Shown here: positions 7,969 to 36,647 of the stretch, piece after piece
Layout of the letters: every line of letters starts with the position of its first letter
Numbering within the stretch: the stretch's first letter is position 1
Assembly (NCBI GenBank): GCA_051362555.1
Contig: CM120641.1
Coordinates: forward strand, 36,710,401-36,774,400
Length of the DNA: 64,000 bases
Reading direction: 5' to 3'
Source: Lingula anatina
Taxonomy: Eukaryota > Animalia > Brachiopoda
Program-made: the position numbers and the translations under genes
The notes under the pieces: model-generated
What the model saw: only the letters and a program-made list of their open reading frames with translations
What the model was told of the DNA's origin: nothing
The model's database searches: none

Positions 7969-8964
7969 GATAGATAGATAGATTTTTATTTTACCATCTC
8001 CGAGCAGAATACAATATTTAACAAAACAAAACAAAAAGTACATTACATATACAGTTAATCCTCCGACCTTTCCGTCTCTGACAACATAAAACATCTATGG
8101 GCATAATTAGCCATTGTATTAATGTCACCCGTATTGTTAAAGAAAGACGTTATGTCTGAAAAGTCTAGTCTATTGTAGTCTTCTCTTAACTGTTTCGTTT
8201 TTTGACAGAAACAAATTACATGCTCTTCCATCTGAACATCAGTTCCACATGTACAGTCTCATATTTCTGGGGCGGCGTGACCAACTCCCCGTTTCAATAG
8301 CTAAACTATGAGCACTTAGACGTAATCGAGAACAGGCTATCCTGCCCCGTTCCCTGAGACTGTATATCGTGTATAGACAAGTTAGGATTCATTTTAAAGT
8401 ATGTAACAGATTAATTCTGATTGAATTTCTAATTCGATTCTTTATTTTGGCTCTATTTGTCTCTATAATGTTATTGGAGTTAACCACTTTGGTCAGAAAT
8501 CGGGCTCCCCTGGTGCCGTTGTCGTTACAAAGCCGCCACACATGCATAAAAGGATCGTCCACCATGCCAGATCGTGTCTGAAGAATCATATAGGTCATAT
8601 AGGATCTTTGTGCAGCGCGTACTCTGGCGCTTAGTTCGGGTATTCCTAATTCGGCTAGTGTTAAGTCATTAGGAGTGCTCTGCCTGACACTTAATAAAGT
8701 TTTGATAATTGCGTAATAGGACGACTGACCTGTTTTATAACTTGAACATAGCCAGGATTCACAGCCATACAGCACCGAAGATATTAATGCTGCTTCCATG
8801 ACCTTTTTCTTTATAGGGAATGGGAAGTCCGCGTTTTTCGAAATAAAAGACGCAAACTTTAAAAGTTGAGATTGTTTTGTGGGAATTTGTTGTCTGACCG
8901 CTTCCACACAACCACCAGTCTGACTAAACATTACCCCTAGATATGTATACACTTTACCATTTTT
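7969..8964 (-). mobile_element. 5'-truncated, frameshifted non-LTR retrotransposon (LINE 3' end, possibly RTE-X-like)
   Basis: ORF 8389-8952 has RT C-terminal motifs YTYLG and VLYGCESW. Downstream frames give SRLRLSAHSLAIETG and CTC...EEHVICFC (CCHC-like). The element ends in AATAAAAA plus a (TCTA)n tail. It is absent from the paralogous site at ~18930-18950. Clade assignment is tentative. Confidence 0.85.
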
Positions 8965-9148
8965 AACCTGTACACTTATTTTTGGCCTTCTTTTTTTAAT
9001 GCCCTTTAGCTACAGTTATTAAATTACACTCATGGTAAAACGGAGAATAAAGGCTTTAATCAAGCAAATGGAATTAATTTTGGGAGACATATTTGATACA
9101 AAAGTTTAAAACTGGCTTTAATTGGCTTGGTTATTTATATACCAAACT

Positions 9149-10668
9149 TCATTCTTTTATCGCTGTTATCAACCTATCCCAGTCAACTGGGCTCCGCAAT
9201 GGGACGATTCTCTTAAACTGAACAGGCATTTTTACATGGTCAGGATTACCCCACACAACAGGTATGACAGAACATGACTGCCTGGCAAAATCTGCATCTA
9301 CCGCATGGTTGATTTCCACTGCCTTGACCTGCTCATCAAAATGCTCAGTGAGAAGAGCAATGATTTTCCGAGACTTTCTCATATTGGTTAGAGCTTCTTT
9401 TAGCTCAAAATGCCCTGGGATGTAGTCTCTAGAGGCGAAACACACCTATTCAAGATTATAAGAAAGAGAATAGATTTATATGACAAATAAAATGAAAAAT
9501 GACAAATTTCGTCAAAAATTAGTAATCCTACATTTTGTAGAGCCTATTTTATATTTGGCAAGAAACTGACCAATTTTGTACAGTTGAGTATAAGACTTTA
9601 CAACATATGCCAATGTATTTATTTATGGCCCCTCCATCCCAGTGTACCACAAACTTTCACAGCCCCATTCACAACAAGAAAGAAGGCAACGGTTGTTTGA
9701 GATTTGGCCAAACAAGGCCGCTTTTATTATATAACCCCACTATCTTAATTATTTTAACAATGTAACAAAAGGTTGCCTGTATTAAATGTTATGGCCTAAA
9801 GGATAAAAAATATAGGGGTGGGCAGTGGACGAAAAACGTTTCTTTTGCGTCTGTCAGGAATATTTCTCACCTTAAGCTCAGCCTTTTTCTCTAGTTTTGG
9901 CAAAAACTCGTCAGTTATCACCTTTTCATCTTCCTCAGATCCAGAGTAAAGCATAAAAACGTCAAAAACTGGCGTTTCTCTGGTTAAGACATCTGTCATA
10001 TGACAACCAGCTGAAACGAAAAGACAATCATTTAGAATAAATGCACTCTACATCAATACGTAAAATACGAACAATTAACTCGCCATTACACTCACCAACA
10101 GACTGAATTTTTTACCTTATTTTCTTTATAATTTGTGGTTTTTCCGTGATCGTTGGCACCTGTCCCTTATTTTCAGCTTCTTTTTCCAAGCTACATTTGT
10201 AGAATATACGGCAGTATACAAAAATCATCGTGCATTTTCACAGACATTAAGAATCTAAAAATTGTGAATTCATATATATCTTTTTCCTTCTTTTATGGTC
10301 TGCCATCTGATAATTCCACTTACCTTCTACTTTACCCCATTCTATTTTGGAAAAGATCTTGGGATCAACCGATCGATTATCGCCAAATCGAACCTCAAAC
10401 TTGGCCTCCTTCAATGTTCGAACAACTTTCTGGCCCAGCCGGTTTGAATGCAGGCAACATAATCTCAATTTCGGTAGTTTTGCCAGCTTTTCCGCAGGAA
10501 TATCCTGCAGGCGATTTTCTGACACACAAATAACCTCAAGGGACTTCACATTTCCGAGAGACTCTGGGAGACGCCTTAATTGGTTCTGTTTCAATCTGAT
10601 GTACTTCAGACTCTGAAAGTAAAGGTAGATGTACAAAGGCCTAAAATTTCTTTGATGGTGCTTGGGTC

Positions 10669-10714
<46 letters not shown>

Positions 10715-12606
10715 CACTGGTGATTCAATAATGTCATGTCTATATCCATTAATGCAAGCAATGAATACCTCAAAGTTAAAAAAATCCATCAAACTTTTCG
10801 TTTTACTTGCAGGTCTATTCAAGGTACCCTAGGTTCTAGATTCCGGTATTGCCAGCTCGATCTTGATTTCATATATAACCCATATCAACAATACCGTAGT
10901 ACGACCTAGTAAAAGTACTCCATCACAAGGTATATATTTAACAAGCTAGCTTTAACGTTGCTCTGACACTCAGGGTAATTCAAGGTCGCTTACAAAAATG
11001 GCAAATAAACTGTGTGAAAGCACGTACCTGTAGCTGATCAATATCATTGGGTAAAACCTGTAATTCATTGTAGGACCCGTCGAAAATGATCAATTCTTCC
11101 AACTTGAGAATATTTGGAGTCAACTCCCTGATGTAATTGGCGTTTAGATACAGCGCCTTCAGTTTTAAGCATTTGAAGTCCAGGTGCCCTAAAACATAGT
11201 TTTATTTTAGAAATTACGTGCTTTGTATTGGCAAATAATAGTAATGCATTTTCATTGTACATGTAATATCTGTAATATGCGTACTTAGTTTATTGCTACG
11301 GGTGTCATAGGATAATACGACATTGACTGAAAACGCCGATCCATTTAACTCTCTTTTATAGTCTGACGTTCATTTCTTTCTGACGGAAACTGACATGGAA
11401 CGAAATTAAGAATAAAGCACGTCCAAGGGAAAAAACATAGTTGTTTTATTTAACGGTGAAACGCTTATATGGTCCCCCGGAAAATTTAATGTTTTTCTCT
11501 TTCAATTCCACTAATCTTTCAAGTTATACAGTAAAGTATAGGAGATGTGGTGTGGTAACCATGGACGGTGGTTTTACTACCGAGTTACTACCTTAGTTGT
11601 GAAGAGGATATTTTTACGTGAAATACTTGAAAAAATCAATAAAGCTTAAACTTTGTCATGTTATTGATTCTCACGCTCCAGTTTTCATAAAAACTGACGT
11701 TTTCATATTTCAAACAAAATATATTGTTTTTGTCATAGTTCTATAAAAAAAATTCTAAGGAAGTCATGTTCCAATGCCCCTGTGTTATTTTTCTGATTCT
11801 TACAAAGATTGGTACTTAAGTCTATATATGTATATGTAAAGGCAACATGGTAATAAAAAGGTGAAAAGAATTTCTGACAACTTGAGACGACCTATAATGA
11901 TAAGCCTATATTCAAGTAGGAGTCTACAGTGCGTGGATAAACACACCTCAATTTAGGTCACATAGAAGAAACGAACATCTGAAATATAAGCAGACATATA
12001 TTTTAACGTACCTATTCCATCATCTGTCAGTTGATTCTTGCTCATATCGAGATGTTCCAGTCCTCGTAATCGAGCTATGACGTCAGGGATCTTCGTAAAA
12101 CGATTACCTCCTAGTTGCAGCTTTTTCAAATTTTGCAAGACTCGCATTGCGTCTGGCAGATCCACCAGGTTATTGCCTGTTAAATAAAGACAATCTAAAT
12201 TCTCCGTGAAGATGCAATTCTCTCCGTGCAAGTTGGGGATACAAGGCAGCTTCAGAAAACTCAATGACAATACTTGTAGTTTGGGCATGCTAACGAGGCG
12301 GTCCCAAACTTTGTCATAATTCTTCTCTTGAATGATTTGATTGACATGGTCTTCTGGTAAATCAGATGAAACAAAGAGCTCGGTAAGACGATCGGGATCA
12401 GCGCAGCCATCTTTGTCAAAGGGAGGTGACAATGGCTCGTCTTCTCTAATGTCGCGTTGAAACACGTACTCATGTACACAACTGAAAGATATTTGGTCTT
12501 CATTTACTTTCGCCACAGCAGAATCGTCTCTGTCATTGCTTACTGAACTCTCAATAGTTCCAGTTGAGAGCCGACTTTGCTCTACATCATCCATTTTGCT
12601 ACACAT
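9149..12606 (-). CDS. LRR-TIR protein, copy A (5 exons, ~490 aa; no signal peptide or transmembrane helix)
   Basis: Exons 12606-12012 (start may be 12594, context CAAAATGG), 11188-11028, 10612-10324, 10010-9871 and 9445-9149 join in frame (phases 1,0,1,0) with GT-AG introns, 1482 nt total. About 9 LxxLxLxxN repeats are followed by TIR motifs FDVFMLYS, RDYIPG and SRKIIALLT. Confidence 0.88.
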
Positions 12607-12656
12607 TTGAAGAGAGTGGAGGTATTACTCGCAGACTTGCGGTCCGCATTACAGGT

Positions 12657-12676
12657 ATGACGTGTAGGAAATTTCC
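12657..12676. promoter_or_regulatory. Candidate NF-kB site (GGAAATTTCC) next to a CRE-like TGACGT, upstream of LRR-TIR copy A
   Basis: Palindromic GGAAATTTCC at 12667-12676, ~60 bp from the ATG; TGACGT at 12658-12663. Motif match only. Confidence 0.4.
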
Positions 12677-14790
12677 ACAAAAATACCCTGCAATGTTTTG
12701 TAATACTGAAATGTGATCCATAAATAGCAGTACGGAAAATCCAATATTCACGCAAAGATAAATATAGGCCTAGATTACAGTCTTTTGTATTGTGACCTGA
12801 GCATTCTCTTTTTCCAAAGCACTTTTTTTAGAATAGTCGTGGTAGATAAATAAGTCTCTTTCGGAAATATCCTGTGCTCGTTATTATTTACTTGTGTAGG
12901 GACTACATTATAGTAATGTAAATAAGCTCTGGTAGATGGAGAGATCTAGACAGATGTGGTTCACAGACATAAACGGTTGAGCAAATTAAAGCGAGTCAAG
13001 TCCATAATATAAGCACAAAAAAAGAATTTCTCAGCGATTTTCTTTTCAGATCCAACGTTAACGTATTGTTTCCTGAAACAATAAAAAATGAACGTTTATC
13101 AATTAGTTTTGAACACTTTTTTAGATGAAATATCGCCCATTTATTACAATTCTTCAAAATGGCAAATCAAATGGACAAGGTGCACTAAAAAGTCATTAAA
13201 TTGCTATAAAAAAATCAAATGAGTGACATATTACCGTCAGCTTAGTTGGACTGAAAGCTCCGTTTTAAAGTTTCAGATCAACCAAGAAAAGTTTGACCTG
13301 GATAGAATATGATTTGTCTGTTTTGGGGCGAGCGACGCAGGAATCTAAAAAAAAGTACTGCAAAGAGAGCAGTCACTTTTTCAAATATCATCCCCAAAGC
13401 TTTTTGTTTTTTAATGATCGTGTTGCACTGTAACCTTTTACAATTAACATGCATCTTGTCAGGTATTTTCCGACCAAATCGAATTTTCCTTGAAAAATAA
13501 CTAATTTTCTCCTACCAACAAATCATTGCTCGACCCTTCCCTGCATTTGGAGTGGTTTTATATCATTTATAATCAAATAATTTACTTCTGAATGTTCCTC
13601 GTAACGTTTTCACCGCCATAGTCTTCATGTACGATTCAGTTACTTTAATTTGAGGGGTAACATATATAGTTTTTTAAGGTCTGAAATAGAAAAATTGAAT
13701 GGGATTTACAAGCTCCGTAACATAGACAAAGAAAAAAGAAACCATTTTTTAACGTTTCTTGTAATCAGAAACTAGTTTCAGTTTTCAAAAACGATTCTGA
13801 GAAGCCATGATTGTTTTGCGGGGGGGAAACAGGAGTACGAAGAGAGAGGCGACTGGCGATCAGCGTATACATGTACCTCGACCAGATAACTTTCACTGCG
13901 GAAGATGTGCTGAATAATACTTGAACTGATTTTTTACACATGTTCTACATTTTTTACGAATTTCAGTTAGATTTATGCAGTTAACGGTTACTGCAGGTGA
14001 TTTAATGAAACAAAGCGCCAAACATTTTCTTTTAGAATTTTCGAAACGAGAAACTTGATATAATACAAATATAGATCAATTCTTAAAATTATAACACGGC
14101 AGTAGGTCGTACCTCTCGCAGTTGTTCATAATTATACAGTGACGCGCTTTTATCACAAGTAAAAGCCCCCGTCACAAAATTACTTTGCTGAGTTTTAATA
14201 TGTGTGTTTTATTCGTGCATCTAGACAGTTAAAATATAAATTCTGCAGAGTTTACTTATGAAAAATTCAATAAACGTGTGAAACGTTTTTCTGTAAGTGT
14301 CCATCTATGTTTCAAGAAGAAAGAAAGAAATATCAATAACCTTACGGTTTCGCTGTACCGTAAGACTGTAAGATTGCATGTGAATCCTGTCTTTTCTATC
14401 AAAATTCCCTCCCCAGTCCGTTCATTCGACCTACGGAAGCTGATTTATATGACCAGTCACGTAATATCAAGTATGTTGACTTTGAAAATGCGATTTTATT
14501 TTTATTTATCTATTTTTGTTGTGTGTGTTTGTGTGTGCGTGTGTGTGTGTCATTATGACTTTATCAACCCCTAATCCTCTTTTCGAGATGGAGACTTATT
14601 GTGCTTTCTCATAAATCAGACTATAATTCAAACCGAAGCGTCCGCACGGAAAGTAGGTGACCTCTTCATCATTATGTAATCGGCTGAGCGTTCTTAGTGA
14701 CAGGTGCTCAGTTAGGATCAAGGTCGATAGAAGATGGGGAAGAAGAATGTCCCATGCCATATTACTGCTACTGCCACATGTAGGCCGAAA

Positions 14791-14964
14791 GGGGCCGTAG
14801 CGATAGTCCGAAGGTTCAATAGTCCGAAGGTTCATTGGTCCGAATGTTCACTACAGAACCTTCGGACCAATGAACCCTTGATTAAAAAACCGATGAAAAT
14901 GTTACCGTTTTTCGGACCAATGAACCTTCGGACCAATGAACCTTCGGACTATCGAGACGCCCCC
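14791..14964. mobile_element. 174-bp foldback MITE with 8-bp target-site duplication
   Basis: GGCCGAAA at 14783-14790 and 14965-14972; inverted arms built of ~16-bp units (ATAGTCCGAAGGTTCA / TGAACCTTCGGACCAA); empty site at ~23982 in the duplicated block. Confidence 0.88.
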
Positions 14965-15195
14965 GGCCGAAAAGATGGCTCTGAATCCGACAGCAGTATC
15001 TCGTAAGTTCAATACAGATGATAGAAAATGTATTATAGCATTTCTTAGTTTTGCATTGACGATATTTTCTCGAAATGGTGCACTCTAGGCATAATGACCA
15101 TGGGGGCATCTACTGGTAACTGACGCGAAGGATACTTTCCCTTTCCCTTTGAGCTTTTTGGGCACCGTTTTGTTTCTGATACCATTACTTTTCCA

Positions 15196-15197
<2 letters not shown>

Positions 15198-15275
<78 letters not shown>
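15198..15275. repeat. (TA)n microsatellite
   Basis: Direct reading; the paralogous position (~24235) has a much shorter array. Confidence 0.95.
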
Positions 15276-15279
<4 letters not shown>

Positions 15280-15692
15280 ATAATTTCAAAGCTTAATTGC
15301 GCTTTGTTAGTTATAACGCAAAAGATGCTGACACGATTGCTGTATTGAGCATATCTGCTTTATCAGATCTTTAGACATTGTTTCATGAATGTGAATTTAT
15401 CCCTTAAATTCCAGTACGGTTTACGAAGATACCAGAAGCGTCCTACTCAGAGACACGTTTTGTATTCGACACATACAGCCCCACACCCATACCAAGATTT
15501 CCTCCTATGCCGACGTTTGTCTGCTCGTTAATTTGCAGGGTCGACATTTAGTGCAGAATGTTTTGTTTGCTTTCGGTTGAAACATTCTGCCCCAAAACGT
15601 ATATCAAATTAAAAGTCGAATAAAATAACTTTGTACTTTTGAAACTTCTCATAGAAATTAGTTCCATATTAAGCGTCTGTTAAGCCTCTCTT

Positions 15693-17083
15693 CTGGTCCT
15701 CAAATCAAATTCGGTCCCTTGATTCTAAACTGTTTACAAGTGGCTCTGTTCTGGTCCTACACCTGTAAATGTCCATCATGACGTGTTTAAACGTGTTCCC
15801 CAAACGCATCCTTGGCTGACCAAAATACGTATGTAAACTGAATGTTAGAAAGAAATGCATTACAATTATTTAAATTCGTATTGTATTTGCTATTATATAT
15901 TCTCACATTTTTTTAAAGAACACAAAAGTTTTGCTGCGTGACTACCTTTAGGATGCTTAATACTACTACAATATTTATATATATGGCGTGCTCATGTGTT
16001 CAAGACAATTCGTGTGTGTGTGTGGGGGGGGGGGGGTCCTCACTCGCTGTCATGATGGTGCGTCTCAAACCTTTTAACTTCATGACCCTTTAAAACACCG
16101 CTACAGATGTAGACAATCTAACCCAAAAATATTATGTTCAATGTTAAAAAAACTTTCAACAAAAAGTGAAAATGCATATTTAGTTTAATATCGGCATAAA
16201 TGTATGACATGTTCCATTATTTTCTCTGGTTTATGTTATTGTATATGTACCCTCTAACAGGGAAAGCAGCCAACAGTTATTAAAAATGATATGAAACACT
16301 AATAAAAACGTTTTGTAAAACGTAAGCGTCGGTAACGTGACTCAAACGTTCACTTTCTTAAGGAATGATTCCCCGGAGTGCAGTTGAGATAAGTTAATTT
16401 ACGCTTTCATTTTTCATATATTTAAGAAATGAGTATCTATTACAAGCGGTCAGGGTGGGAGGGGGAGCATAAGAGAATAAGAGCATAAGAGCAATATACT
16501 AGAGAATACCCTGTAATTGATCAATTTGTCTTTTTCAATTCATGCCGAGAAGTATCACCTTACCCGTCGATCTCGCGGATACTTCACATGGCCGTTTAAA
16601 CCAATAAAAATTGGTTTTTAATAACCCACAACCCCACCCCACCGAACGTCATACAGTGTATTAGCATGTTTCCGAATAAAAACTATATACCAAAGAAATT
16701 AATTTAGAGGCCAAAAGAGAGACAGCTAAGGGCACGTTTCGGTATGACTATTTAAAACTGTAGGTTTAATATAAACATCAATGGCTTCTTAATCAGTATA
16801 GTCAACAAGCCTACTCTGCCTCTTTAGACTTTACATTAAGTATTACAAGGAGTTACAAACTACAGCAATTAACCCCCTCCCCTCCCCCGAACGTCATACT
16901 GGCAGGTTTGCAAATGAAGACTATACCGCAGAAAAAGTTTGGGGCCCAAAAGAGAGCCAGCTAAGAACACGTTTGGGGAACACGTGTGTATACGTCATAA
17001 TGGACATTTACAGGTGTAGGACCAGAGCAGAGCCTCTTGTAAACAGTTTAGAATCAAGGGACCGAGTTTGATTTGAGGACCAG
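15693..17083. mobile_element. ~1.4-kb non-autonomous DNA transposon with ~115-bp terminal inverted repeats
   Basis: CTGGTCCTCAAATCAAATTCGGTCCCTTGATTCTAAACTGTTTACAAG... (15693-~15806) is the reverse complement of ~16969-17083. Its two flanks are contiguous at ~24660-24670 in the paralogous block. Confidence 0.85.
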
Positions 17084-17403
17084 TGTCCGCCCTGCATGAT
17101 GCTGGTTTGCTTCTTTTGGTTATGTATGTTACTAAATAGTAATGCAGTACTCTATTGATCATGGTGTCATGAGGGTAATTTATGTATACTTTTGGGTCGG
17201 GGTTGATACCCGTCCCTTTCCGAACCTGAATCGTTAAATTTAACAGAAATAATGTCTGTATGAAAATGATAGTGATTGATTACTCTCATGGTAAAACGGA
17301 GAATAAAGGCTTGTGATCAAGCAAATGGAATTAATTTTGGAAGACATATTTGATACAAAAGTTAAAAGCTGGCTTTAAATGGCTTGATTATTTATACCAG
17401 ACT

Positions 17404-17677
17404 TCATTCTTTTATCGCTGTTAACAACTTATCCCAGTCTACTGGGTCCGCAATGGGATGATTTTTTTAAACTGAGCAGGCATTTTAAAATTGCCAGGAT
17501 AACCCATACAACAGGTATGACAGAACATGCCTGCCTGGCCAAATCTGCATCTACCACCTGGTTGATTTCCACTGCCTTGACCTGCTCATCAAAATGCTTA
17601 GTGAGAAGAGCAATGATGTTAATAGCTTCTTCCGGCATATAATGCCCTGGGATGTAGTCTCTAAAGGCAACACGCAC
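17404..17677 (-). pseudogene. LRR-TIR copy C: last TIR exon only, with an internal deletion and frameshift
   Basis: VRVAFRDYIPGHYMPEEAIN/IIALLTKHFDEQVKAVEINQ lacks the NMKKSRK stretch and shifts frame after IPVVW. It lies ~35 bp from a copy of the 5' flank of exon 1 (from ~17712), so coding exons 1-4 are missing. Confidence 0.85.
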
Positions 17678-19125
17678 CTATTCACAATAAAAGAAAGAAA
17701 GTAAATTCCACGTCTGAAGAGAGTGGAGGTATTACTTGCAGTCTGCATTATGATGCGTTGGAGACTTCCATATAAAGATCCCTGCAATATTTTGTAATAC
17801 TGAAATGTGATCTGTAAATAGCAGTTTGGAACATCCTATATTCACACAAAAGCATGTAAACAGGCCAACAAACACAGGTAAAGGGACTGATGTAATGAAG
17901 CCCGAGCATTCTCTTTTTGTAAAGCTTTTTTTTTTTTTTTTTTTTTTTTGTTACTCGGTAGAATGAATGAAAAAGATGTATTCTGGTTCTCTCACAAGTT
18001 TTATTTCTTGAAGATACAGAAAACACTGGTACACAAGCGATAGCGACTCGCCTGCGTTTCAAGAGTGCGGCCCATCAACAATTTAATTAAGGCTATACTT
18101 TTTGTAATACCGAAAGGAGAAACCATAAACTGCCAATCTTCGACAAGGGGTCTTTAGAGTTGACTAAGTACTTTTGCATTAATACTGACAGATAGAGAGA
18201 CAACAATGTTATAATAGGAAATTGTCATAAAAATATCATTTGGACATCTGCCAAACCAAAGCCTCAATAGTGTTATAGTAATATAAATAAGCACTTTTAG
18301 TATGAGAGATCTACACAGCAAATGTGGTCCACAAACATTACCATTTGAGCAGCTTAAAGGGAGTCTAGTTCAGGTCTATAAGGATAAAGAAAAGAAAAAA
18401 GAACTTGTCAGCAATTTTCATTTCAGAACCAACATATTTTTTCTTGAAACAATAAAAAATTACACACATCAATTAGTTATGAATACTTCTTTTTTTAGCT
18501 GAAATATTGCCCATAAATAACAATTCTTTAAATGACTAATCATTTGGACTGGCTGCACTACATCATGAAATTTCTAGAAATAAACCACGAGTTCCATATA
18601 ACCGTCCTCTTAGCTGTACTGAAAGCTCCGTTTAAAAGATGCACTGGATTCATAGTATAATATTAGTTATAATGTCGTAATATTTAGAATAAGGGATTTG
18701 TAATAACACATATTTCTGTGGCATTAAAGGAAAAACATTCATTTAGGTAATGGTAATCTTTGCGGGTTGATTTTCTGGGTCACTGATATGTCTTACTCAA
18801 AGTGAAATGAAGTCAACGATAATTGATCGCTTTCATTTTTCAGTAAAAAAAGATATTATACATATTATTAATCAATCTACAAGAGTACAAAATTGTCGAT
18901 ACGAAGGTGCCGTTGTCAGCCTGTTGCCAACCTATGTACATGAACACTTATTTTCGGCCTCCATCCCTTTTTTTAATGCCCTTTAGCTACAGTTATAAAA
19001 TTACTCTCATGGTCAAAATGGATAATAAAGGCTTGTCATAAAGCAAATGGAATTAATTTTGAAAGATATTTTTGATTCAGAAGTTAAAAACTGACTTCAA
19101 ATGGCTTGGTTATTTATTCCAAACC

Positions 19126-19931
19126 TCATGCTTTTATAGCTGTTAACAACTTATCCCAGTCTACTGGGGCCCGCAATGGGACGATTTCCTCAAACTGAGC
19201 AGGTATTTTTACATAGTCAGGATTACCCCATACAACAGGTATGACAGAACATGACTGCCTGCCATGATCTGCACCTACTGCCTGGTTGATTTCCACTGCC
19301 TTGGCCTGCTCATCAAAATGCTCGGTCAGAAGAGCAATGATTTTCCGAGACTTCTTCATATTGTTAATAGCTTCTTCCGCCATATATTGCCCTGGGGTGT
19401 AGTCTCTAAAGGCAACACAAACCTATTCATAATAAGAAATAAAATAATTTTACGTGACAATTTAAAGGGATAATAACTCTTCGTTTCGGCCAAAAAATGA
19501 ATTTTCCTGGAGTAAACAACAATTTTCCCATACTTACCAATGGTTAATTAATCCATTTTTACATTCAAAGTTAGTCCCTGTTTTTTTTTTCATAAAAGTT
19601 TGTTTTTTTGTTAAAATCTCTTAAGAGATGTAACAGAGTATAGTCATCAATGGAGGTCAAGTGGTTTAAAGACAAGCTCAAATATCAGAATTTATGGCTA
19701 TAACTGCCGTTTTTGTGGTAAAACAGAATAAATTATATTTCTATGAGTTATTCACAATGTTTTTATTGTGAAATATAGATCTCATACGAAGAGTTATTAT
19801 CCCTTTAATTGAAAAATGACAACAAATTGTGACAAAAGTGAGAAAGCCTACATATTGTAGAGCCTATTGTATATATAGCAGGCAATTTTGACCAATTCCA
19901 TACAGTTTAATGTGCGACTTAACAGCATATC

Positions 19932-20005
<74 letters not shown>

Positions 20006-21693
20006 CTATAGATGCCATATATTGCCACGGATGCTATTACTTTCTGACAAATGATTTTACTCTGCTAGGGGAGACAGGGGATGAAATCTTTTGTGTCTCA
20101 CCTTAAGCTCATTTTCCTTCTCAAGTTCTGGGAGAAACACATCAGTTATCAACTTTTCATCTTCCTCAGATCCAGAGTAAAGGATAAAAACATCAAAAAT
20201 TGGCATTTTTCCGGATGGGACATCTGTCATATGGCAACCAGCTGAAACGAAAAGACAATCATTTTTAATAAACGTTCTCTACATGGGTACTTGAAAATAC
20301 GAATACGTAGTTAGATGTCATTGCACTCACCAATTAAGTGAATATTTTACTTTATTTTCTCTAAAATTTGTGTTTTCCGTGGTCGTTTGCATCTGTCTAT
20401 TCTTTTCAGCTTCTTTCATCTCCGTGGAGAAATCATCGTGCATTTTCACAGACATTAAGAATTTAGAAATAGTTCTTATATATATATTGCCTGCTTTTAG
20501 TTAAATGGTCTGCCTTCTGATAATTCCACTTACCCTCTATTTTATCCTTTGCTATTTTGGGATCAACCAACCGATTATCGCCAAACCGAACATGAAACTT
20601 AGCCTTCTTTAATGTCTGAAAAACTGCCTGGCCCAGCCGGTTAGAATGAAGGCAACATAATCTCAATTTAGGTAATTTTGCAAGCTTTTCTGCAGGGATA
20701 TCCTGCAGGCAATTTTCTGACACACAAATAACCTCAAGGGACTTCACATTTCCGAGAGACTCTGGGAGACGCCTTAATCGGTTCTGTTTTAATCTGATGT
20801 ACTTCAGACTCTGAAAGTAAACATGTATTAAGGTAAAGAGAGTTTGATGGCGCCTTGCTTTTTTTCACATTATTATTATTATGCAACTCAAGAATCTCAG
20901 GTCTATAGCCGTTATTGAAAGAAATATATGACGCCCACGTATCCATCAAATTGACTTCTCAGTAAATATTGCTAACAGGCCTATTAAAGGTCAATTACAC
21001 AAATGACAAATAAACTACGTGGAAACACATACCTGTAGCTGATCAATTTCATCGGGGATAGACTGTAATTCATTGTAGGACCCATCGAAATGTGTCAGTT
21101 CTTTCAACTTGAAGATATTTGGAGGCAAGGTCCTGATTTTATTGCCGTTTAAATACAACTCCTTCAGTTTCAAGTCTTTGAAGTCCAGGTGCGCTAAAAC
21201 ATTTAGTTTTATTTTACAAATTACGTGCTTTGTATTGACAAAATATAGTAATGCATTTTTATTGTAACATCAATCACATGTGAAAAATGCATAGTTGGTT
21301 TACGGTTTACTGTCACAAGTGTCATTGGATAATACGACATTAAAATCACACTTTGACTGAAAACACCGATTCATTCAACTTTAATAGTCTGACGTGGAAC
21401 GAAAATGGAACGAAATTTAGAATAAAGCACGTCCAAAAAAAAAACATCCTTGTTATATTTAACGGTGAAACACAGTTATGGTCCTACAAAATACTTAATA
21501 TTCTTCAAAGTTAATATTTTCATTTTTTTATTATTAATTTATTTAATTTTAAAGTTTTAAAAAACTTTTTGGATTTAATTTTTTGTTTTTAGACTTACTT
21601 CTACAAAATAGATTAAAAGAAAGCAAAATCCAAGAGGGTAATGATCCAATTCCCCTGTGTTATTTTTCTGATTCTTACAAAAACTGGTACTTT

Positions 21694-21787
<94 letters not shown>

Positions 21788-22854
21788 AGCCCAGGCCAAA
21801 TCTAGTCCTATGACTTAGAAGCCCAGACTCCATCCTAATTAAGGCCTGCTGGGCCCAGTCTTAATGGTGTCTTTGCATTGTTAACAGCATAAGACCAAGT
21901 TAATTGGCCAAGCTGCCAGTTTGTTTGTATGGCATGTGTAGGGGATGTCTTAGATCAAGGCACATATTATGATACTTGCAGGTGTGGCAAATGAGATATA
22001 GTTGTATTTCATTACCTGTGATTTGTAAAATACATCTGAGGATGATACTTTAAAATGGGTGGGCTGCCATTTGTTAGTGTGTTATTATGCTGACAACATG
22101 ACACAACCTATCTGACAACATGACACAACCTTTAACGGTATGCTTACATTCGTTCAGGTGACAACAATGCGTGGATAAACACCTCACCGTAGCTATAGGT
22201 TGTGCGAAACAAAAATCTAAAATACTGAAATAAGCGGACAGTTCTATTATTTCACCCACCTATTCCATCATCTGTCACTTGATTCTTGCTCATATCGAGG
22301 TGTTCTAGTCCTTGTAATCGAGCTATGACGTCAGGGATCTTCGTAAAATTATTGCTTCCTAGTTGCAGCCTTTTCAAACATTGCAAGACACGCATTGCGT
22401 CTGGCAAATCCTCCAAGTTATTACCTGTTAGAAAAAGACATCGTAATTTCTCCGTGAAGACGCATTTCTCTCCGTGTAAGTTGGGGATACAAGGCAGTTG
22501 CAGAAAACTCAAAGACAATGTTCGTAGTTCGAGCATTTTAACGAGGAGGTCCCAAATTTTCTCATAATTCTTCTCTTGAATGATTTGATTGACATGGTCT
22601 TCTGGTAAATCAGATGAAATATAAAGTTCGGTAAGATGATCGGGATTAGCACGGCCATCTTCTTCAATGGGAGGTGAAGATGGCTCGTCTTCTCTTACGT
22701 CGCGTTGAAACTGGAACTCATGTACACAACTGAAAAAGTGTTGGTCTACATTTACATTGGCCACAGCAGATTCGTCGCTGTCATTGCTTACTGAACTCTC
22801 AATAGTTTCAGTTGAGAGCTTATTTTGCTCCACATCATCCATTTTGCTACACAT
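19126..22854 (-). CDS. LRR-TIR protein, copy B (5 exons, ~489 aa; no signal peptide or transmembrane helix)
   Basis: Exons 22854-22260 (start may be 22842), 21193-21033, 20810-20534, 20241-20102 and 19422-19126, 1470 nt total. Same phases and exon sizes as copy A except exon 3 is 12 nt shorter. TIR motifs FDVFILYS and RDYTPG. Confidence 0.88.
19466..19804. mobile_element. TTAA-flanked MITE (Kolobok-like) in intron 4 of LRR-TIR copy B
   Basis: TIRs AGGGATAATAACTCTTCGT / ACGAAGAGTTATTATCCCT; TTAA at 19462-19465 and 19805-19808; absent from copy A intron 4; second copy at 35888-36211. Confidence 0.88.
19935..20002. repeat. (TA)n microsatellite
   Basis: Direct reading. Confidence 0.95.
21696..21785. 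repeat. Compound (TC)n(TA)n microsatellite
   Basis: Direct reading. Confidence 0.95.
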
Positions 22855-23664: not shown

Positions 23665-25273
23665 CAGTCACGTAATATCAAGTATGTTGACTTTGAAATG
23701 CGTTTTTAATTTAATTTATTAATTTTTGTTGTGTGTGTGTGTCATTATGACTTCATCAACCCCTAATCCTTTTTCCTTTTTTCGAGATGTAGACTTATTG
23801 TGCCTTCTCATAAACCAGACTATAATTCAAACCGAAGCGTCCGCACGGTGACCTCTTCATCATTATGTAAATCAGATGAGCGTTTCTGGTGAGAGGTGCT
23901 CAGTTAGTATAGGATCAAGGTCGATACAAGATGGGGAAGAAGGGTGTCCCATGCCATATTACTGCACTACTGCCACATGTAGGCCGAACAGATGGCACTG
24001 AAACCGGCAGCAGTATCTCGTAAGTTCCGTACAGATGATAGTAAATATATGGTAGCATTTATTAGTTTTGCATTGACGGTATTTTCTTGAAATGGTGCAC
24101 TCTAGGCACATAGACCATGGGGACATCCACTAGTAGCTGACGCGAAGGATACTTTCTATTGGCTTTCCCTCTGAGCTTTTTGGACACCCTTTAGTTTCTG
24201 ATACCATTAGCTTTCCATGAGGGTTCAATGTGAATATATATATATATATATATTTGTTTCATTTGAAAGCTTAATTGCGCTTTGTTAATTATAACGCAAA
24301 GGATACTGACAAGAATTGCTGTATTGAGAATATCTGCTTTATCAGATCTTTAGACATTGTTTCATGAATGTGAATTTATCCCTTTAATTCCAGTGACTCT
24401 AAGTACGGTTTACGAAGGTACCAGAAGCGTCCTACTCAGAGATACGTTTTGTGTTCGACACATATACAGCCCACCACATCCATGCCAAGATTGCCTCCTA
24501 TGCCGACGTTTGTCTGCTCGTTTGCAGGGACGACATTTAGTGCGGAATGTTTTGTTTGCTTTTGGTTGGAACATTCTGCCCCAAAATGTATATCAAATTA
24601 AAAGTCGAATAAAATAACTTTGTATTTTTGAAACTTCTCATAGAAATTAATTCCATACTAAGCGTCCGTCCTGTATGATGCTGGTTTGCTTCTTTTGGTA
24701 ATTGTATGTTACTAAATAGTAATACAGTACTCTATCTGATCATGGTGTTATGAGGGTAATTTATGTATACTTTTGGGTTGATACCCGTCCCTTTCCGAAC
24801 CTGAATCGTTAAACTTAGAGTTTTCATCTGTTAGAAATAATGTCTGTATAAAAATGATAGTGATTGTTTTAAAATTATCATATATTGATTTCCAAGAAGA
24901 GAAATGTTTGTTAATTGTCACTGAAAATATGTGTGGGGAAATCTGCAACTTGACTCCTCGCTGTCAACTTGAAGTTGTACTCTTATTTATTTTAAATGGT
25001 GTTGACTTCTAGAAAGGAAAGACATCGCACCCGCATTACGTTAAATGCATACAGGAAACTTTAAATTACATTTTACCGTGTGGTCAGTCGAAAAAGAGGA
25101 AGAGATGTAGATCTACAAAAGATGCTGTAAATAAAACCTGTAAAGCCTGAGAAATCCCAACATTATGTAACGGGCAAATGTTGGCCTACCCACGTTTCTG
25201 CAGAATTGTCCTCATGTACTGTAAAAATCTTTTAACAATTATGAATATGGCACTGTAACTGTGAATAAACTTC

Positions 25274-31511: not shown

Positions 31512-32113
31512 GCCCCACCTGTCACCCCTCGAATCTGGAATGGACTCGCCCCCACCTGTCACCCGTCAAAATAGAATGGACTTTTCCCACCTGTCACCCC
31601 TCGAATTTGGAATGGACTCACCCCACCTGTCACCCCTCGAATTTAAAATGGACTCTCCCGACCTATCACCCCTTAAATGAAATGGACTCGCTCCACCTAT
31701 CACCCCTTAAATGAAATGAACTCGCCCCACCTGTCACCCCTCGAATCTTAAATGGACTCGCCCCACCTTTCACCCCTTAAATGAAATGAACTCGCCCCAC
31801 CTGTCACCCCTCGAATCTTAAATGGACTCGCCCCACCTGTCACCCCTCGAATCTTAAATGGACTCGCCCCACCTGTCACCCCTTGAATCTTAAATGGACT
31901 CGCCCCACCTGTCACCCCTTAAATGAAATGGACTCGCCCCACCTGTCACCCCTCGAATTTGGAATGGACTCGCCCCACCTATCACCCCTCGAATTTAAAA
32001 TGGACTCGCCCCACCTGTCGCCCCTTAAATGAAATGGACTCGCCCCACCTGTCACCCCTCGGATTTAAAATGGACTCGCCCCACCTGTCACCCCTCGAAT
32101 TTAGAATGGACTC
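31512..32113. repeat. Minisatellite of ~17 units, 36-bp and 34-bp variants
   Basis: Units GCCCCACCTGTCACCCCTCGAATCTTAAATGGACTC (36 bp) and GCCCCACCTGTCACCCCTTAAATGAAATGGACTC (34 bp), head-to-tail with no unique spacers. Confidence 0.95.
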
Positions 32114-33712
32114 GGCTCAACATGTGACCACTTAATTAATGTTTCTGTCTCCCCTTAAATTGAAAAAGTTCCACAACAAACTGAACACAATCATTTATTC
32201 CAAACAAACAAACGTAGATTTTTGAATGAAATTTTTTATTACACAAGGCAACTTTAACGACAGAAAATAATACTGAACGATATCAATTAATTTTTACATA
32301 TAGTAATGAACATGTTTTATGCAAGACTGTCCAAATAAACCTTATATGTCAATTTGTAGTATAAGGAAATATAATTGAGTACATATTACTAAAATAGCAT
32401 TTTTCTTGGTGCAGTTGTATGAGCAATAAGTTTTCACAAGCAAACTATAGGCTGGTTTTGCCCAGAAAAAATTACATTTAATAAAGAATGTAAAATTGCA
32501 CTGAAACTACTACAAAACATTTAAAATGACTATATTTTAATTTTAAATAAATATGCTCTGCTTTAAATTATGTGAAAATCGTTGAAAATTTCACATTCTA
32601 AACACGAATGGAATAATGGACAATTTTGTAAAGTATTTTACTTCCTTTTATCACAGTTTACGGTCTGAAATTCAGCGTAGTGACACATATAGAGCGAAAG
32701 ATAACTATCAGTGCAATATTGTATTAACAAATCTGTTGGTGCGATTGAGGAAGATAAGGATTTGCGCAACAAGATAAAAGTTAGAAATAAAAGAAAAAGA
32801 ATGGATTTTTGACAAGTGAAAATCGTGGTTTCAGATAGCGTTGGAATTTAATACATCTTTGTACTTTAATTCTATTCCTATGCATACTTTTACTTACATA
32901 AACCAATAGTTAAAAATTTAGTGTATACATATAGTGCGGTATAAGGTATGGACGGAGAATTGGAGAAATGAAATTGGCAGATTTAGACTTATTGCCATCT
33001 TTCTAACCGTGATCTCAACATGGAGACATGCATGTATATATGTTTTATTTCCAACTTAATTCAATTTCCATATTTGTTAATTTCAATTTACAAATATTTT
33101 AAAAAGCAATTTTTGAAAATTTTGGAAAAAATAAATTCTGATACACATTTTTTTGTTTAAATTAAAAAAAAAGCAAATACACAATTCAAAACGCTAGATT
33201 ACAGCTTCTGAAAATTTAGTACATTTTAACATTACTTTTACTTCTGTGTTCTTAAATAAAATCGAAAACTATCCAAAGAAGCGCATTTATTATTTTTTTT
33301 AAATGCTTGCCATTCACAAGTGTCAGAAAATATGACTTACAAATGGTTTCAAAAAAGTTAATTGATCCATTTCTGGGTAGCCTTTAAAAGCAAGAGGAAT
33401 CGATAACTGGATATAATTTTTTAAATAAAAAGATGTATTTCTGGGTATGATTTTTAAAACAATTTTGATCCATTTCTGAGTATAATTTACATTATTATAT
33501 GATCCATTCTGATTATGATTTAAAAACAAATGTGATCATTTTCTTTATATAATTTTAAAACATCGCTACCTGGGTATTATTTGAAAACGAAACCCAATGG
33601 CTCTTACTACTACATTTCTATATGTTAAAATCTTACACGTGGGCCTTAAATGTTTGAAAAATACAGGAACAAAACGTACGCTTATAACCATATTGCATGT
33701 GCAGTGTGAGTG

Positions 33713-35584: not shown

Positions 35585-35887
35585 TCTGACTTTCAAGAAC
35601 ATGAGGTTAATCACTGAAACTAGCGTATAGACAGATGCCCATTTTATCATTACATACTTAAGCACATATATATCTTTCCAAGAATAAATGTAAAAACGAT
35701 GCATTCTTCATTTCCGTATACAGTCGTATTCAGCAAATAATACATTGCTGAAATCATTGTTGGCATATTGAAGACGGATAATTCTAAAACCGTAACAGAC
35801 AGACCCGCAGTAACCATGAGGTTAGACGGGAAGTCATGCAAAAAAAGAAAAAAAAGGTTTAAGTCTGACCTTATACTTGACGCTTAA

Positions 35888-36211
35888 AGGGATAATAACT
35901 CTTCGTTTCAGCCGAAAAGTGAATTTTCCTGGAGTAAACAACAATTTTCCCATACTTACCAATGGTTAATGAATCCATTTTCACATTCAAAGTTAGTCCC
36001 TGTTTTTTTTCTAAAAAGTTTGGCCTCTTAAGAGATTTTAACAGAGTATAGCCATCAATGGAGGTCACCTACCCTAAAGACAAGCTCAGATATCAGAATA
36101 ATAGCTATAACTGCAATTTTTGTGGTAAAACAGAATATATTTCATTTCTATGAGTTATTCAGAATGTTTTTATTGTGAAATATAGATCTCATACGAAGAG
36201 TTATTATCCCT
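35888..36211. mobile_element. TTAA-flanked MITE (Kolobok-like), second copy
   Basis: Same TIRs and near-identical body as 19466-19804; TTAA at 35884-35887 and 36212-36215. Confidence 0.88.
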
Positions 36212-36647
36212 TTAATCATGCTTAAAGGTCACATTGAAAACTAGATAATTGTTCCAAAAATACCTTGTAGGCATGGTAAAAGAGTTTTAAGTGAGCTTCT
36301 TCTTCATTATTGCCAGTATTACCACTTGCACTGTTCATACAGATTGTTTTTCATTTTACACATATTCAAGTTGTGACTTTAAACTCCCGTAGCCTGTGCC
36401 AGAGACAGTTTATGAAAGTCCACATTAACCGCATCCCATAATTAAAAACTGTCCCTCATTATGTAGGTCACCAATCTATAATTTTTGTCAACGTTAATGC
36501 AATAAATGGATAATCGAGTGCCTTATTATCGTCAATTTTGTTTTTATTTATAAATTGTGATAGATGAGACGGCTTGCAACCACATTCTGAAACCAATTGC
36601 TTTTGTTGGCAGATTGATCAGTCGAAATAGCAGAATAAATCGCATTG

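Follow-up and report, generated by a model that had tools for sequence, protein, structure and literature searches.

From their exons, two neighbouring genes of the brachiopod Lingula anatina are predicted to encode a soluble protein made up of nine leucine-rich repeats (LRRs), a linker and a TIR domain, with neither a membrane span nor an NTPase domain. Both lie on the minus strand of the 64,000-nucleotide stretch analysed here (assembly GCA_051362555.1, contig CM120641.1, positions 36,710,401 to 36,774,400; hereafter the window, in whose numbering all coordinates are given), gene A at 12606-9149 and gene B at 22854-19126. They are intact paralogues, and their sequences lead us to favour, tentatively and with somewhat less than even confidence, the reading that they code for an intracellular immune sensor that would signal by TIR-TIR assembly via an adaptor such as MyD88. 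To our knowledge, animal LRR sensors signal either across the membrane, as Toll-like receptors (TLRs) do, or via an NTPase switch, as in NLR and Roco proteins. Judged from sequence, the architecture of A and B is real, intact and unusual, a variant among invertebrate cytosolic TIR proteins that has provisionally been found in Lingula only.

Gene models and copies of the array

Exon models were built from the window sequence itself. Gene A codes for 493 amino acids (aa) counted from its first ATG and gene B for 489 aa, each in five exons, and the two proteins are 77.7% identical. All eight introns of the two genes are bounded by GT-AG, with intron phases of 1, 0, 1, 0, and the spliced frames are open up to a terminal stop, which bears out the original prediction of two intact five-exon genes. 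In gene A, exon 1 (12012..12606) encodes an acidic N-terminal region of approximately 105 aa and LRRs 1-4, exon 2 (11028..11188) encodes LRRs, exon 3 (10324..10612) the final three LRRs and a polar linker, exon 4 (9871..10010) the end of the linker and the start of the TIR domain, and exon 5 (9149..9445) the TIR domain from strand B to the stop, including the BB loop and the alpha-C glutamate E439 (9316-9314). The exons of gene B lie, also on the minus strand, at 22260..22854 (acidic N-terminal region and LRRs 1-4), 21033..21193 (LRRs), 20534..20810 (final repeats and the linker, with 12 nt fewer than its gene A counterpart), 20102..20241 (start of the TIR domain) and 19126..19422 (remainder of the TIR domain, with the alpha-C glutamate E435 at 19293-19291).

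Alignment of A with B shows a single indel, which is in frame, in 1470 coding columns, against 16 in 1072 columns of flanking and intron sequence, and with coding indels so few the exon models are not a product of chance. Gene B matches the L. anatina RefSeq protein XP_013384746.1 (P0001), labelled 'erbin-like', at 96.5% identity over 489 aa; the two align without gaps and therefore have the same exon joins.

A third copy, C, sits between genes A and B as a pseudogene (17279..17934, minus strand) that has lost exons 1-4, so that its 5' flank runs directly into the last bases of intron 4 and then exon 5. Its exon 5 has one 21-nt and two 1-nt deletions and is frameshifted. The array consists of two intact genes and one broken copy, and self-comparison of the window indicates that the duplicated unit also takes in several kilobases of upstream flank. 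The genes had been proposed to form a tandem family under birth-and-death evolution; local duplication and the loss of one copy stand, and a wider family is hypothetical, the copies found being three local ones of a single genus.

Domain content of the proteins

The order of parts in A and B is an acidic N-terminal region, nine LRRs, a polar linker of approximately 30 aa and the TIR domain, as originally described, and the linker, LRR and RDYIPG motifs quoted in that description are present in gene A. The first 90 residues of P0001 contain 22 D/E against 5 K/R, and Pfam gave no match for the N-terminal 103 aa. The LRRs comprise an irregular first repeat and eight of 23-25 aa, five of the repeats having exactly 23 residues. 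A Pfam scan was run on P0001, with families considered up to E 1, and returned the TIR family PF01582 at 40.6 bits (cut-off 21.3) together with LRR_8 and LRR_4, which exceed their curated cut-offs; it returned no NB-ARC, NACHT, Roc, COR or LRR-CT family, in agreement with the claim that an NTPase domain is absent. The linker leaves no room for ROC/COR or another domain between LRRs and TIR, and the segment from the last LRR to the TIR domain contains one cysteine.

No membrane span was identified by hydropathy, since the highest 19-residue Kyte-Doolittle mean was 1.17 in A and 1.13 in B, in both cases inside the first LRR. Hydropathy also gave no signal peptide, the best 8-residue core near the N-terminus scoring 0.23 in A and 1.05 in B, with an upstream exon being possible. 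Intron 3 is 292-313 nt long, and it contains no candidate for a hidden exon coding for a transmembrane (TM) helix: in gene A there are three open frame-keeping AG..GT candidates, with a best hydropathy of 0.37, and in gene B there are none. The lack of a signal peptide, LRR-CT cysteine cluster, hydrophobic segment and hidden TM exon had all been predicted, and hydropathy and Pfam agree with it. Hydrophobic stretches in the introns were separately considered as exons and rejected, as they derive from (ATT)n and (AT)n repeats.

In genes A and B alike, a pyrimidine run and then an AG directly follow the first ATG. This AG could be a splice acceptor, and therefore an upstream exon of either gene is possible; were a coding exon spliced to it, the models would be 5'-incomplete and the protein would gain a membrane anchor or other domain, with LRRs and TIR remaining on the same side of the membrane. 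The 5' end is defined by no read, yet RefSeq begins at the first ATG, positions 12659-13195 are without reads in 4/4 RNA runs, and the ATG-led frames shared upstream look like neutral duplicated sequence, so that we consider an extension of this kind to be very unlikely.

The LRR region was compared with the PDB, and the best 60 of 341 matches were headed by LRRD1, Leptospira LRR proteins, a plant receptor kinase and SHOC2, included LRRC8A and contained no TLR. The TIR region matched TLR3, TLR1, TLR2, TLR6 and SIGIRR best, with E values of 7e-8 to 8e-5, and its BB loop reads RDYIPG in gene A and RDYTPG in gene B. By sequence, then, the LRRs are of the cytosolic type and the TIR domain is of the TLR/IL-1R type, both as had been proposed, and therefore the protein is probably not a TLR that has lost its membrane helix. 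A predicted model of the TIR domain was weak (pLDDT 52); Foldseek ranked the TIR domains of TLRs, MyD88 and TRIF first, and VIA-align on this weak model could not separate TIRs from receiver domains. The single-sequence fold of P0001 had a pLDDT of 37.6. Atlas feature neighbours of the protein were TLR clusters (0.91-0.92), the TIR alone giving values <0.9.

E439/E435 aligns with the glutamate of the TLR1 WCHYE motif when a gap of one residue is allowed, and lies in a nearly invariant block in which the glutamate is kept in 4/4 TIR sequences. The Trp-Cys that precedes the alpha-C glutamate and the strand-A serine, which line the pocket of active TIRs, are both replaced in the Lingula TIR. The glutamate is consistent with an LRR-gated cytosolic NAD+ enzyme, in which clustering would turn on the TIR domain to make cyclic ADP-ribose (cADPR) or deplete NAD+, in the manner of a plant TNL or a Thoeris sensor without the NTPase. 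A recent preprint, in the part available, reports that the TIR of a Lingula TLR makes cADPR and that 12 of 61 animal TIRs with the alpha-C glutamate were active in E. coli, most of them making cADPR (bioRxiv 10.64898/2026.04.20.719644). The same source found the other 49 of the 61 inactive, and a passage elsewhere puts the glutamate in >70% of all TIRs and describes it as not predictive of activity (PMC7075850); given also the gap needed for the alignment and the two pocket replacements, we regard an enzyme as unlikely. By analogy, the protein might further be imagined as a minimal one-chain cytosolic receptor of Lingula, lacking both a membrane and a nucleotide switch, in which target binding by the LRRs would set the TIR to making a cADPR-type signal. 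Such a receptor would be the animal equivalent of plant TIR-NLR and bacterial Thoeris signalling, reached by domain shuffling and with a fast-diverging TIR. We think this quite unlikely. BB-loop Pro-Gly, which is present in the Lingula TIR, marks adaptor-binding TIRs according to a passage of the paper cited above for the glutamate (PMC7075850).

In the sensor reading that we prefer, binding of a presumptive target at the LRRs would cluster the TIR domain, the clustered TIR would recruit a TIR adaptor such as MyD88 through its BB loop, and the output would run to NF-kB. Without a nucleotide switch, the off state would have to depend on low expression, or on a masking role of the acidic N-terminus or of the LRRs. 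TIR shuffling is common in invertebrates, and the gene may have arisen in this way, either when a cytosolic LRR gene acquired a TIR or when an LRR-ROC-COR-TIR gene shed its GTPase switch.

Transcription, divergence and neighbouring elements

Seven of nine same-species RNA runs of poly(A) reads were mapped (6-30% of reads each), at 95% and at 85% likeness, the 85% set being the four runs X2, X3, X8 and X9. Repeats dominated at both thresholds. At 95% likeness hardly any reads lay on gene A. At 85% likeness X8 and X9 had a depth of 0.2-3.9 in the bins of all five gene A exons, the cover of exon 1 being thin, and the next bin upstream was at zero; X2 was faint over exons 3 and 5, and X3 showed nothing. 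It can be seen that exons of the gene A type are transcribed at a low level. Five molecules of X9 start in exon 5 (9313) and five end in exon 3 (10492), 442 nt apart once spliced, and these ends fit pairs that bridge the TIR and LRR exons, though the starting and the ending molecules need not be the same.

Comparison of A with B gave a ratio of non-synonymous to synonymous substitution rates (dN/dS) of 0.57 for the whole frame (Fisher p 6e-4); by region, the LRRs have 0.46 (p 0.001) and the N-terminal region 0.92. The two frames are under purifying selection. When gene B and P0001 are compared as haplotypes, 12 of 133 TIR residues differ against 5 of 356 elsewhere (p 2e-4). This TIR-biased divergence may reflect selection on the TIR domain, or exchange of TIR exons between copies; together with the tandem duplication and the loss of one copy, it fits an immune gene.

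Several results weigh against a sensor that acts through an adaptor. The dN/dS of 0.64 in the TIR domain is not significantly below 1 (p 0.17), and a domain that binds a conserved adaptor would not be expected to change fast. Reads on gene B are almost absent from the four runs, the bins of this gene having a depth of <=1.0 outside repeats. The reads over gene A differ from the window sequence by up to 15 letters each, and of the read variants in exons 4-5 three give residues of the RefSeq protein XP_013384751.1 (P0087) and one does not, which places the origin of the reads in a P0087-like allele or paralogue and not in gene A of the window. This 141-aa protein is nearest to gene A (14 of 141 residues differ, against 30 for gene B), and it is modelled as TIR-only, beginning inside exon 4, in conflict with the five-exon gene A. 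The original prediction had looked to RNA mapping to confirm the exon junctions; the exons of gene A are thinly covered, and no junction of gene A or gene B is among the joints listed for the 95% and 85% mappings, with 74 weaker joints of the 85% mapping lying outside that list.

The TIR-only RefSeq model and the lack of listed junctions would suit an arrangement in which the LRR exons and the TIR exons form separate units, or in which the main product is TIR-only, as would copy C, where the 5' flank is directly on exon 5. Against such a split, the five exons of gene B are all joined in RefSeq, the phases at the short intron 3 are compatible in A and in B, exon 3 runs without a stop to a GT donor, and the read counts of X9 on exons 3 and 5 match (7+3 each). 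We therefore hold it to be highly unlikely, and infer a single spliced transcript. The predicted joining of LRRs and TIR in one gene has the agreement of an independent RefSeq model for gene B, and is opposed by the TIR-only model near gene A.

Very low basal expression, with a TLR-type TIR that has no membrane anchor, could also point to a soluble decoy or brake, induced after infection, whose TIR would occupy the TIR surfaces of TLRs or MyD88 and damp signalling, the LRRs targeting it to a host partner. The passages available describe inhibitory TIR adaptors in amphioxus (PMC6043800) and propose TIR-only competitors of MyD88 in oyster (PMC4346834), and a kappaB-like palindrome (12667..12676) lies 60 nt upstream of the first ATG of gene A. 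This site is weak: it is the only exact one in the window but has one mismatch in gene B, and the count of 2 matches compares with 1.77 expected by chance. Moreover, the LRRs are the most constrained part of the protein, beyond the needs of a simple decoy. We consider a decoy rather unlikely and retain the adaptor-coupled sensor as the preferred reading.

A number of other elements were observed in and around the array. A plus-strand spliced element (GT-AG, 374-nt skip) at 23932-24019 and 24394-24474, with a copy at 14719-15002 and 15413-15476, points away from each LRR-TIR gene and has been duplicated along with it. Hundreds of X2 and X3 reads (85% likeness) continue from this element into other sequence, so that it belongs to a multi-copy transcript family; it has no Rfam match, and Rfam gave no matches in the window between 7000 and 26000. 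Intron 4 of gene B contains a MITE-like insertion (19462-19808) with perfect 23-nt terminal inverted repeats, which has a second copy at 35884-36216 and is very common in RNA reads. An approximately 150-nt repeat in intron 2 of gene A (10825-10977) is absent from gene B and occurs in many unrelated transcripts, and a foldback element with 54-nt inverted arms and short internal repeats (14791-14964) is found upstream of gene A and not of gene B. Just downstream of gene A is an open frame of 206 codons (8389-9009, minus strand) with no Pfam family above cut-off, which we take to resemble the end of a non-LTR retrotransposon ORF. Further away are a tandem repeat with a period of approximately 105 nt (31512-32135) and a large multi-exon gene (42345-62469, plus strand) coding for many laminin G domains and an EGF domain, presumably neurexin/Caspr-like by its layout.

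Relatives and comparison with known systems

A word-based search of exon 1 against longer proteins gave 21 matches among 697 candidates, with P0001 alone spanning the full query; exon 1 also matched the LRR-ROC-COR proteins P0002 and P0011. P0001 was likewise the sole match to the TIR region in word-based searches of 294 and of 7991 candidates. A HMMER search of 1.84 billion sequences with the whole protein was dominated by LRR proteins, P0087 alone among the best 150 matching the TIR domain, and a metagenome scan returned three loci that matched the LRR part only, at 28-34% identity. No full-length relative outside Lingula was found in these three word-based searches, one HMMER search and one metagenome scan, of which the word-limited ones are weak evidence of absence, and the restriction to Lingula is provisional because search sensitivity is limited. 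One protein of 1432 aa, P0084, also has LRRs and then a TIR domain in one chain, with a C-terminal TIR that belongs to the TIR_2 type of prokaryotes. When 171 proteins were scanned with a profile of the Lingula TIR, P0084 was not detected, and convergence on this layout is therefore likely.

The A/B protein is not a member of the TLR, NLR or Roco families. It resembles animal TLRs in its N-terminal LRRs and C-terminal TLR/IL-1R-type TIR with the BB-loop Pro-Gly, but lacks their signal peptide, LRR-CT cluster and membrane helix and has LRRs of the cytosolic class. Surveys of TLRs, as far as the excerpts consulted go, require a TM domain and so would skip A and B (PMC8609888, PMC10279657); oyster TLR homologues 'lacking transmembrane domains' are mentioned in one sentence of the literature excerpted. 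LRRs and TIR also occur in one protein in Roco-TIR (LRR-ROC-COR-TIR) proteins, for which Aplysia is stated to carry genes (excerpt of PMC9334734), and in the placozoan ecTIR-DC 14 class, described in the portion available as TM-less LRR+TIR proteins with many extra domains (PMC6321704). In contrast to these, A and B have no ROC, COR or other domains, and are 489-493 aa long against approximately 3000 aa for ecTIR-DC 14. With plant TNLs and animal NLRs the protein would share the coupling of LRR sensing in the cytosol to a signalling domain, together with tandem duplication and loss, but it contains no NB-ARC/NACHT, its order is reversed with the TIR at the C-terminus, and the TIR is of the TLR type by sequence. 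The 23-residue LRR class is that of cytosolic LRR proteins of the Erbin, SHOC2 and LRRD1 type, from which the RefSeq name 'erbin-like' derives; unlike these proteins, A and B end in a TIR, and they have fewer repeats and neither a PDZ nor a death domain.

No description of the gene, or of an animal cytosolic family of LRR and TIR only, occurs in the excerpts of the literature searched, which included PMC2858798, PMC6321704, PMC8609888, PMC6043800, PMC10279657, PMC8662601, PMC4346834, PMC12521104, PMC12816324, PMC9334734, PMC6040629, PMC3342246 and PMC8195603; Gerdol 2017/2018, Huang 2008 or preprint supplements may list the protein.

The finding extends to three copies in one genus. The membrane filter of TLR surveys, together with an 'erbin-like' label that hides the TIR domain, means that such proteins are easily missed elsewhere. 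Since the TIR of a Lingula TLR makes cADPR, the question of scaffold or enzyme is directly testable in E. coli, and a protein of approximately 490 residues with neither a membrane span nor an NTPase switch would offer a compact case in which to study how a TIR domain is kept off and turned on.

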